Assembly (NCBI RefSeq): GCF_963921235.1
Contig: NC_086097.1
Location: 14,322,001 to 14,386,000 of the forward strand
Direction: 5' to 3'
Origin: Mobula hypostoma
Taxonomy: Eukaryota
Length of the DNA: 64,000 nucleotides
Shown piece after piece: positions 36,078 to 36,635 of this stretch. The position numbers and the translations under genes are program-made. How positions within the stretch are numbered: the stretch's first letter is position 1; every line of letters begins with the position of its first letter. The notes beneath the pieces are model-generated. The model searched no databases. It worked only from the letters and a program-made list of their open reading frames with translations, and was not told the DNA's origin.

Positions 36078-36635
36078 TAGGTTTGGTCGCCGGCCGCCCG
36101 ACCATAGTTTTCAGTCAGGCGCTGGACGCTCGGAGAGATTCGGCAGGGGCCATGGTCGAGTGGTCGGTGACTTGGGCTGGCTGCCCCACCGGACTTAGTC
36201 TGGTGAGGAGGGTGTGAGGACACCCAGCAAGACTGAAAAAAAACAAGACCTGACAAAGGACGGATGAACTCCTTGTGAGCCAACGGCCATCTTCCGTGGA
36301 AGAGATTAAAGCCTCACCACGTATCTACGAATTGTATGCTATGCACCTAGTTAGAAGAGACATGATGAACTTGGGCGCTGCACCGTGTGCCTGGACCTGC
36401 CCAAGGCCTCCGCCTAAGGAAGGGTCGAGCTCGAAGAAGCAGCCGCGGCTGGAGGCCGACACGGCCTCGGGCTCAAGTTCGGCGGGGGCGGGGGCGGCGG
36501 CGGGCAGTGCCAAGGCGGCCAGCGAGAACAAACCAGAGGAGAGGCTGTACTTGGTGCTGTCGCAAGATCGAAGAAGAAGGAGGTGCATAGCCGCCAACCC
36601 CGGACTCGGGATGGCGCCCACTGACTGACTGACTG
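36078..36635 (+). mobile_element. RTE-derived non-autonomous element with captured host-gene fragment and (CTGA)n tail
   Basis: 10-bp TSD actattgatg (36068-36077) / actaatgatg (36636-36645); 3' end DMMNL..QDRRRRRCIAANPG resembles RTE C-terminus. Confidence 0.75.
36377..36560 (+). pseudogene. ZFTRAF1: Circularly permuted fragment of ZFTRAF1/CYHR1-like N-terminal coding sequence
   Basis: 36379-36411 encodes [11 protein letters not shown]; ~36433-36559 encodes KKQPRL...ENKPEERLYLVL; recalled vertebrate ZFTRAF1 reads KK...[25 protein letters not shown]. Confidence 0.8.

Follow-up and report, generated by a model that had tools for sequence, protein, structure and literature searches.

Non-autonomous retroposons are known to capture host exons: SVA_F1 carries exon 1 of MAST2 and numbers 84 copies, and pt_SVA_D6 carries exon 1 of STK40 and numbers 94 copies (PMC6139936). 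Among LINEs, the clades that give rise to bipartite elements lacking an ORF are RTE, Ingi, Vingi and R2 (PMC5786205), and the same picture of bipartite RTE-type elements has been drawn for hagfish (PMC7245038). A separate literature deals with circular DNA: published work treats a switch of segment order from A-B to B-A, accompanied by microhomology, as the hallmark of a circular DNA intermediate (PMC7450558), tilapia vasa was duplicated through such an intermediate (PMC3245284), and the germline contains small circles that cluster around 180 bp, are genic and rich in GC, and have been closed through microhomology-mediated joining (PMC10581685).

Here we describe a short insertion that can be compared with all of these systems. 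The reading we favor, with somewhat more confidence than doubt, is that the insertion belongs to a bipartite retroposon of RTE type and that a circle of host exon, about the size of a nucleosome, was incorporated by its founder.

The insertion and the LINE it interrupts

A 558-bp retrotransposed unit is present at positions 36078-36635 of the window, by which we mean the whole 64-kb stretch of DNA analyzed here. The window is repeat-rich vertebrate DNA, and its LINE types suggest a cartilaginous fish. The insert splits a LINE that runs unbroken in two paralogs found by BLAST within the window: 35702-36070 aligns to 62812-63167 and 36630-37352 to 63159-63904, which form one unbroken paralog at 62812-63904, and a second paralog of the LINE flanks lies at 7853-8209. 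The insertion site has the following features.

35702-36077, minus strand: left (3'-ward) part of the old, CpG-depleted LINE; 73.7% identity to paralog 62812-63167; CpG observed/expected 0.15
36068-36077, plus strand: target-site duplication, left copy; 9/10 match to 36636-36645, 11/13 when extended
36621-36636, plus strand: (CTGA)4 microsatellite tail, running into the target-site duplication
36636-36645, plus strand: target-site duplication, right copy; pairs with 36068-36077
36646-37352, minus strand: right (5'-ward) part of the interrupted LINE; 70.5% identity to paralog 63159-63904; CpG observed/expected 0.24; weak RVT_1 match (E 0.19)

A target-site duplication (TSD) of this quality has a chance of 0.0012, as estimated from 5000 randomly drawn pairs of sites with the register free over 6x6 combinations, and together with the tail it encloses the whole unit, including the host-like segment in its middle (hereafter the cargo). 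The earlier note had described a TSD-bounded 558-bp insert in a Rex1 LINE; the insert, the 9/10 TSD and the (CTGA)4 tail all hold, whereas the Rex1 name was not borne out by Pfam, which assigned only RVT_1 (E 5e-16 in a paralog of the host LINE). Our own view of this LINE as Rex1/Babar-like is an assumption from its motifs. The CpG observed/expected ratio is 0.74 in the 5' part of the insert, 0.79 in the cargo and 0.93 in the 3' part, while the LINE flanks have ratios of 0.15 and 0.24; since the insert lies so far above its flanks, it is either much younger than the host LINE or unmethylated.

When 36060-36660 was searched against the 64-kb window by BLAST, no second copy of the insert was found, and patterns from the tail gave no matches in GTDB genomes or in viral contigs, collections that are not expected to contain this genome. 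In an index of sequencing runs, 20 of the 23 runs listed contain part of 35900-36800 (4 contain at least half of the 83 words; 9 studies), but the index does not tell which part of this interval matches and was not used as evidence; no RNA run is among those listed. Elsewhere in the window, two young CR1-like LINE copies (38152-39771 and 54071-55687) lie inverted and 14 kb apart with 97% identity over 1621 nt, the first of them continuing into a 551-aa endonuclease frame at 39512-41167, and a minisatellite at 13933-14798 comprises 35 copies of a 25-nt unit with 88% matches.

The 5' module and the class of the element

On either side of the cargo, the insert is made up of three parts.

36078-36295, plus strand: 5' module; a long hairpin (36085-36172), then a motif block (36151-36291) common to invertebrate-like LINE loci
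36296-36376, plus strand: linker and presumed LINE ORF-end remnant before the cargo; contains the 5' stem arm (36338-36348) and the first in-frame ATG (36341)
36561-36620, plus strand: 3' part, encoding a QDRxxxR...AN-type ORF end; contains the 3' stem arm (36581-36591)

A 27-letter pattern from the 5' part, scanned against metagenome contigs and viral contigs, found two loci (L001 and L002) in the former and none in the latter. L002 matches 36151-36291 with 75.2% identity over 141 nt and L001 matches the module with 88.5% identity over 52 nt, values that are partly a matter of construction because both loci were chosen by a pattern taken from the module itself. In a three-way alignment of the module with both loci, the common blocks extend well upstream of the search pattern. 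About 460 nt after the module, L002 contains a decayed RT-type ORF end; L001 has no such remnant, so that it is seen in one of the two metagenome loci. A 52-aa piece of the L002 ORF matched three proteins, among them P0002, a repeat protein without relation to the others that we set aside; a further search, with P0003, gave P0004 as its single match. P0004 carries an RVT_1 domain (E 7e-35) and a DUF6451 match below the Pfam cut-off (E 0.016), and its residues 578-781 align to L002 with E 8e-8; a PDB search with P0003 returned two rows at chance level. We take P0004 and P0001 to be RTE-clade proteins on account of their C-terminal motifs. The 5' module may thus derive from the 5' UTR of a LINE that is presumably of RTE type.

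The ~140-nt motif block is shared by a vertebrate element (36078-36295) and two AT-rich, invertebrate-like contigs (L002 1477-1612 and L001 532-668, both on the minus strand), with no Rfam match, and could be a promoter or a 5' processing element of its LINE group. The minus strand of L002, at 772-1943 of the reverse strand, has the 5' module and then, after 460 nt, only the post-RT end of a LINE ORF; it may be an internally deleted LINE or two fragments. L001 contains a near-perfect palindrome of about 33 nt some 130-170 nt 3' of the common module and no ORF remnant; it may represent a further non-autonomous element, likewise short and sharing this 5' module.

In the copy at 36078-36635, the 5' module folds with a z score of -3.89, and the consensus fold of the three sequences has a covariation term of 0.01, with double changes in 2 of 30 pairs. 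The stretch 36111-36129 in the 5' part is complementary to the (CTGA)n tail at 36614-36632 (19 nt, 79%) and is unpaired in the minimum-free-energy fold. Rfam gave four matches on the insert, all far below the gathering score, and Pol III box patterns found one loose A-box-like match and no B box in the 5' module. We rejected a classical tRNA SINE (SINE1/2/3 class), given no Rfam match at gathering score and no B box. For an HDV-like 5' ribozyme, which takes the form of a nested double pseudoknot with a catalytic C, Rfam gave no match and inspection by eye no consistent P1; a sigma-70 scan, irrelevant to vertebrate DNA, returned no sites.

The insert shows no coding capacity for endonuclease or reverse transcriptase, being 558 bp long with no Pfam match at the cut-off (one sub-threshold DUF6248 match, E 0.02, was taken as noise), and it has the TSD and 3' microsatellite tail that characterize bipartite RTE LINEs. 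These data support the view that the insert is a non-autonomous retroposon, one whose 5' module comes from a LINE and whose cargo resembles host sequence. The RTE origin proposed in the earlier note fares unevenly along the insert. For the 5' module it is supported, with RTE as the presumed clade, by homology to L002 and the decayed RT-type ORF end there; for the 3' tail it is not, the tail peptide having scored at 19, 478 and 892 of 1000 shuffles against P0001, P0004 and P0003 with no significant alignment at the expected place, the P0001 alignment (19/1000) falling at another Arg-rich place. The peptides before and after the cargo are as previously translated. We assume that they represent one RTE ORF end interrupted by the cargo, the 3' peptide resembling the ORF ends of that clade.

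The cargo and its proposed route into the element

The cargo (36377-36560, 184 nt) is CpG-rich and is the sole 184-nt stretch in the window with at least 65% GC. We take it to be a piece of the first exon of ZFTRAF1/CYHR1. Two segments and one open frame need to be distinguished.

36377-36412, plus strand: cargo segment A, 36 nt; encodes a CxxC-type motif, out of phase with the chimeric ORF; third-position GC 12/12 in its own phase
36413-36560, plus strand: cargo segment B, 148 nt; Ala/Gly/Ser-rich linker; third-position GC 43/50 in the ORF phase (p 0.005)
36254-36628, plus strand: open frame, 124 codons between stops, or 95 aa if begun at the first ATG; crosses both cargo junctions

Where a single in-frame exon piece had been proposed, we find instead two segments in different codon phases. 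The change-point falls at 36413-36416, with a score of 12.3 versus 6.3 for the best single phase, in a scan over all split points and phases whose score has no null distribution. Read in its own phase, segment A has G or C at 12/12 third positions, and read in that of the ORF at 6/11, a marginal signal (p ~0.05 over three phases). If the ends of 36377-36560 are joined to make a ring, segment B runs into segment A without a change of phase; a CxxC appears in 11 of 36 ring closures, and three Cys together with CxxC only in the 184-nt closure, although by itself the ring test settles phase only. In ZFTRAF1/CYHR1, the presumed donor, the end of the linker (segment B) directly precedes the Cys motif (segment A), with two adjacent Cys at the joint. 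The cargo may thus be an exact circular permutation of a host exon piece, probably from this gene, its halves swapped and abutting. Searches of protein databases and the ESM Atlas returned no ZFTRAF1 sequence, and segment B had no match in protein search, Pfam or the ESM Atlas.

The chimeric frame that spans both junctions was the basis for describing the cargo as in frame. A stop-free frame does run from 36254 to 36628, but the start previously given, 36275, is a GTG, and the first in-frame ATG is at 36341. More importantly, the frame reads the Cys-motif segment out of phase and only the low-complexity linker in phase, so the chimeric ORF contains no ZFTRAF1 domain. The probability of no stop in a given frame over 183 nt of cargo composition is 0.31; multiplied by 1/3 for phase, such an open frame would arise by chance about once in ten times. 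Protein searches with the frame found no homologues at E<=1 among 3018 candidates (a search of longer proteins), and with its 3' 70 aa none at E<=10 among 11 candidates, although blank searches of this kind show neither absence nor novelty. We therefore rejected a functional in-frame fusion, and the open frame is probably incidental and without function. That the fusion was kept for its peptide, or that the element serves to make regulatory RNA against ZFTRAF1, finds some encouragement in a 124-codon stop-free frame across both junctions, yet the phase of the Cys motif, the chance expectation, the blank homology searches and the GTG at the named start leave it, in our estimation, only a very slight chance.

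A repeat of 2-3 nt stands at both ends of the cargo, and the 3-nt repeat reported before is indeed present at 36376-36378 and 36561-36563. Two segments that are swapped and abut exactly are the signature of a circle opened once, and a single microhomology used twice would explain why the element resumes at the same site. We envisage a non-autonomous founder that consisted of the two ends, 5' and 3', of a LINE of RTE type, and a nucleosome-sized circle that formed from a GC/CpG-rich host exon. A microhomology of 2-3 nt within one founder copy would have been the site of the circle's single opening, either through repair of a DNA break or through a reverse transcriptase that traveled once round the circle and back to the same site. 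The chimeric RNA would have kept both LINE ends and thus remained a substrate for the LINE enzyme, with the cargo as passenger, and target-primed reverse transcription would then have inserted the short element into the old LINE, by an enzyme whose clade we infer. A DNA circle as the source of the permuted cargo has, in our judgment, about an even chance.

Alternatively, the element could have arrived here without cargo, and repair of a break within this single copy could afterwards have taken up a small circle, in which case no family carries the cargo; the short repeat at both cargo ends does resemble a local repair scar, and this is the single copy in 64 kb, with no other in the collections searched (none of them expected to contain this genome). 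The CpG ratio of the cargo (0.79) is like that of the element halves, however, and so gives no sign that the cargo is younger than the element, and a rare event in a young target of 375 bp would, we reason, be sampled far less readily than a member of an amplified family. We consider such a one-off repair unlikely. The like CpG retention fits a cargo that was part of the moving unit, without proving it.

Other sources of the permutation do without a DNA circle. An 11-bp stem that pairs 36338-36348 with 36581-36591 at a probability of 0.92, and that would arise by chance with probability 0.036, encloses the cargo and would bring its two flanks together in RNA, and the cargo lies in the sense orientation of the element; both would suit a reverse transcriptase that, within one round of copying, switched from element RNA to a linear ZFTRAF1 transcript, skipped ahead along it and went back to the element RNA. 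LINE enzymes have been reported to make double template jumps (PMC2104539), and non-colinear junctions have also been ascribed to reverse transcription across structured linear RNA (PMC4897178). This route requires three jumps, and the point of exit from the transcript in the last must coincide precisely with the point of entry in the first, a match that a circle yields free; we hold it to be rather unlikely.

The junction of segments A and B would, in ZFTRAF1, lie mid-exon, inside the coding sequence and some codons before the end of the motif. First exons have no splice acceptor, which counts against an origin of the cargo in circular RNA. A back-spliced circular ZFTRAF1 RNA copied once round would account for the permuted order, and non-colinear junctions do mark circRNA-derived pseudogenes, of which up to 33 copies are described (PMC4897178), but known junctions of that kind join exon ends, and we give this source a slim chance. 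A slice of a tandem duplication as the source of the permuted cargo also seems improbable to us. Uptake of a circle opened once thus remains the route we favor.

Significance and comparison with described systems

Small germline DNA circles are abundant, but cases in which one has re-inserted heritably are difficult to observe. An exon fragment of circle size that is permuted and lodged in a retroposon would offer a route for fixing one such event; if the family is real, the event has been copied many times, and a comparison among copies would tell when the capture took place and resolve its junctions to the base. The range of exon capture by non-autonomous retroposons, as known from SVA_F1, would also be widened, since here the element is of RTE type, the captured piece lies in its interior and the mechanism is other than splicing. 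In its most far-reaching form, which we regard as a long shot, a nucleosome-sized DNA circle from a host CpG-island exon was captured once by the founder and multiplied genome-wide, the cargo having aided this spread as a CpG-island promoter inside the element or as a shield against methylation, and the copies would tie ZFTRAF1 exon 1 to silencing in trans (piRNA/siRNA, methylation). Were this true, the family would preserve germline microDNA as a datable fossil in many copies, and a vertebrate would supply a natural experiment on whether captured exons silence in trans.

Each part of the insert has a precedent, and we did not find the combination in print in the literature searched. In searches of the open literature on ZFTRAF1/CYHR1, on batoid retroposons and on ZFTRAF1 together with retroposons, the element was undescribed among the matches listed. 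Five of six motifs of the element were absent from the PMC5786205 supplement in a motif search, and the sixth, a 7-mer, occurred there in unrelated contexts. In general architecture, the insert resembles Bov-A, RTESINE1/2, WALLSI3 and RTE-N2_Lch (PMC5786205; PMC7245038), all of them short, with a LINE-derived 5' module, a 3' end with a microsatellite tail, and a TSD; it shares with the bipartite RTE elements of Bov-A type that no tRNA-type B box was found. Set against the bipartite RTE elements in the accessible text of PMC5786205, only this insert has a host coding-exon piece in mid-element, within a presumed ORF-end remnant.

Like SVA_F1 and pt_SVA_D6, the insert is a non-autonomous retroposon with a GC-rich piece of a host first exon. 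In those elements the exon is colinear, stands at the 5' end and was acquired via splicing, with L1 as the partner, whereas here it is internal, permuted, without bounding splice sites and in an RTE-type element (PMC6139936). No colinear exon joined at a splice donor is present at 36377-36560, and capture by splicing was rejected for a cargo that is internal and in two phases.

Tripartite LINE template-switch chimeras likewise unite several templates in one TSD-bounded insertion, but theirs are colinear pieces of different RNAs, while in our insert the same element resumes after a permuted cargo (PMC2104539). The circRFWD2 pseudogenes (33 copies) share with the cargo a non-colinear junction in retro-copied host sequence; that junction is a back-splice between exon ends, whereas the one described here is presumably mid-exon and embedded in a LINE-derived element (PMC4897178). 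Closest in the order of the segments are duplications through circular DNA, including tilapia vasa, which show the same change from A-B to B-A with micro-homologies or micro-duplications at the junctions (PMC7450558; PMC3245284). Those duplications exceed 20 kb and are single events outside mobile elements, whereas the cargo, at 184 nt, has the size of a mononucleosomal circle.
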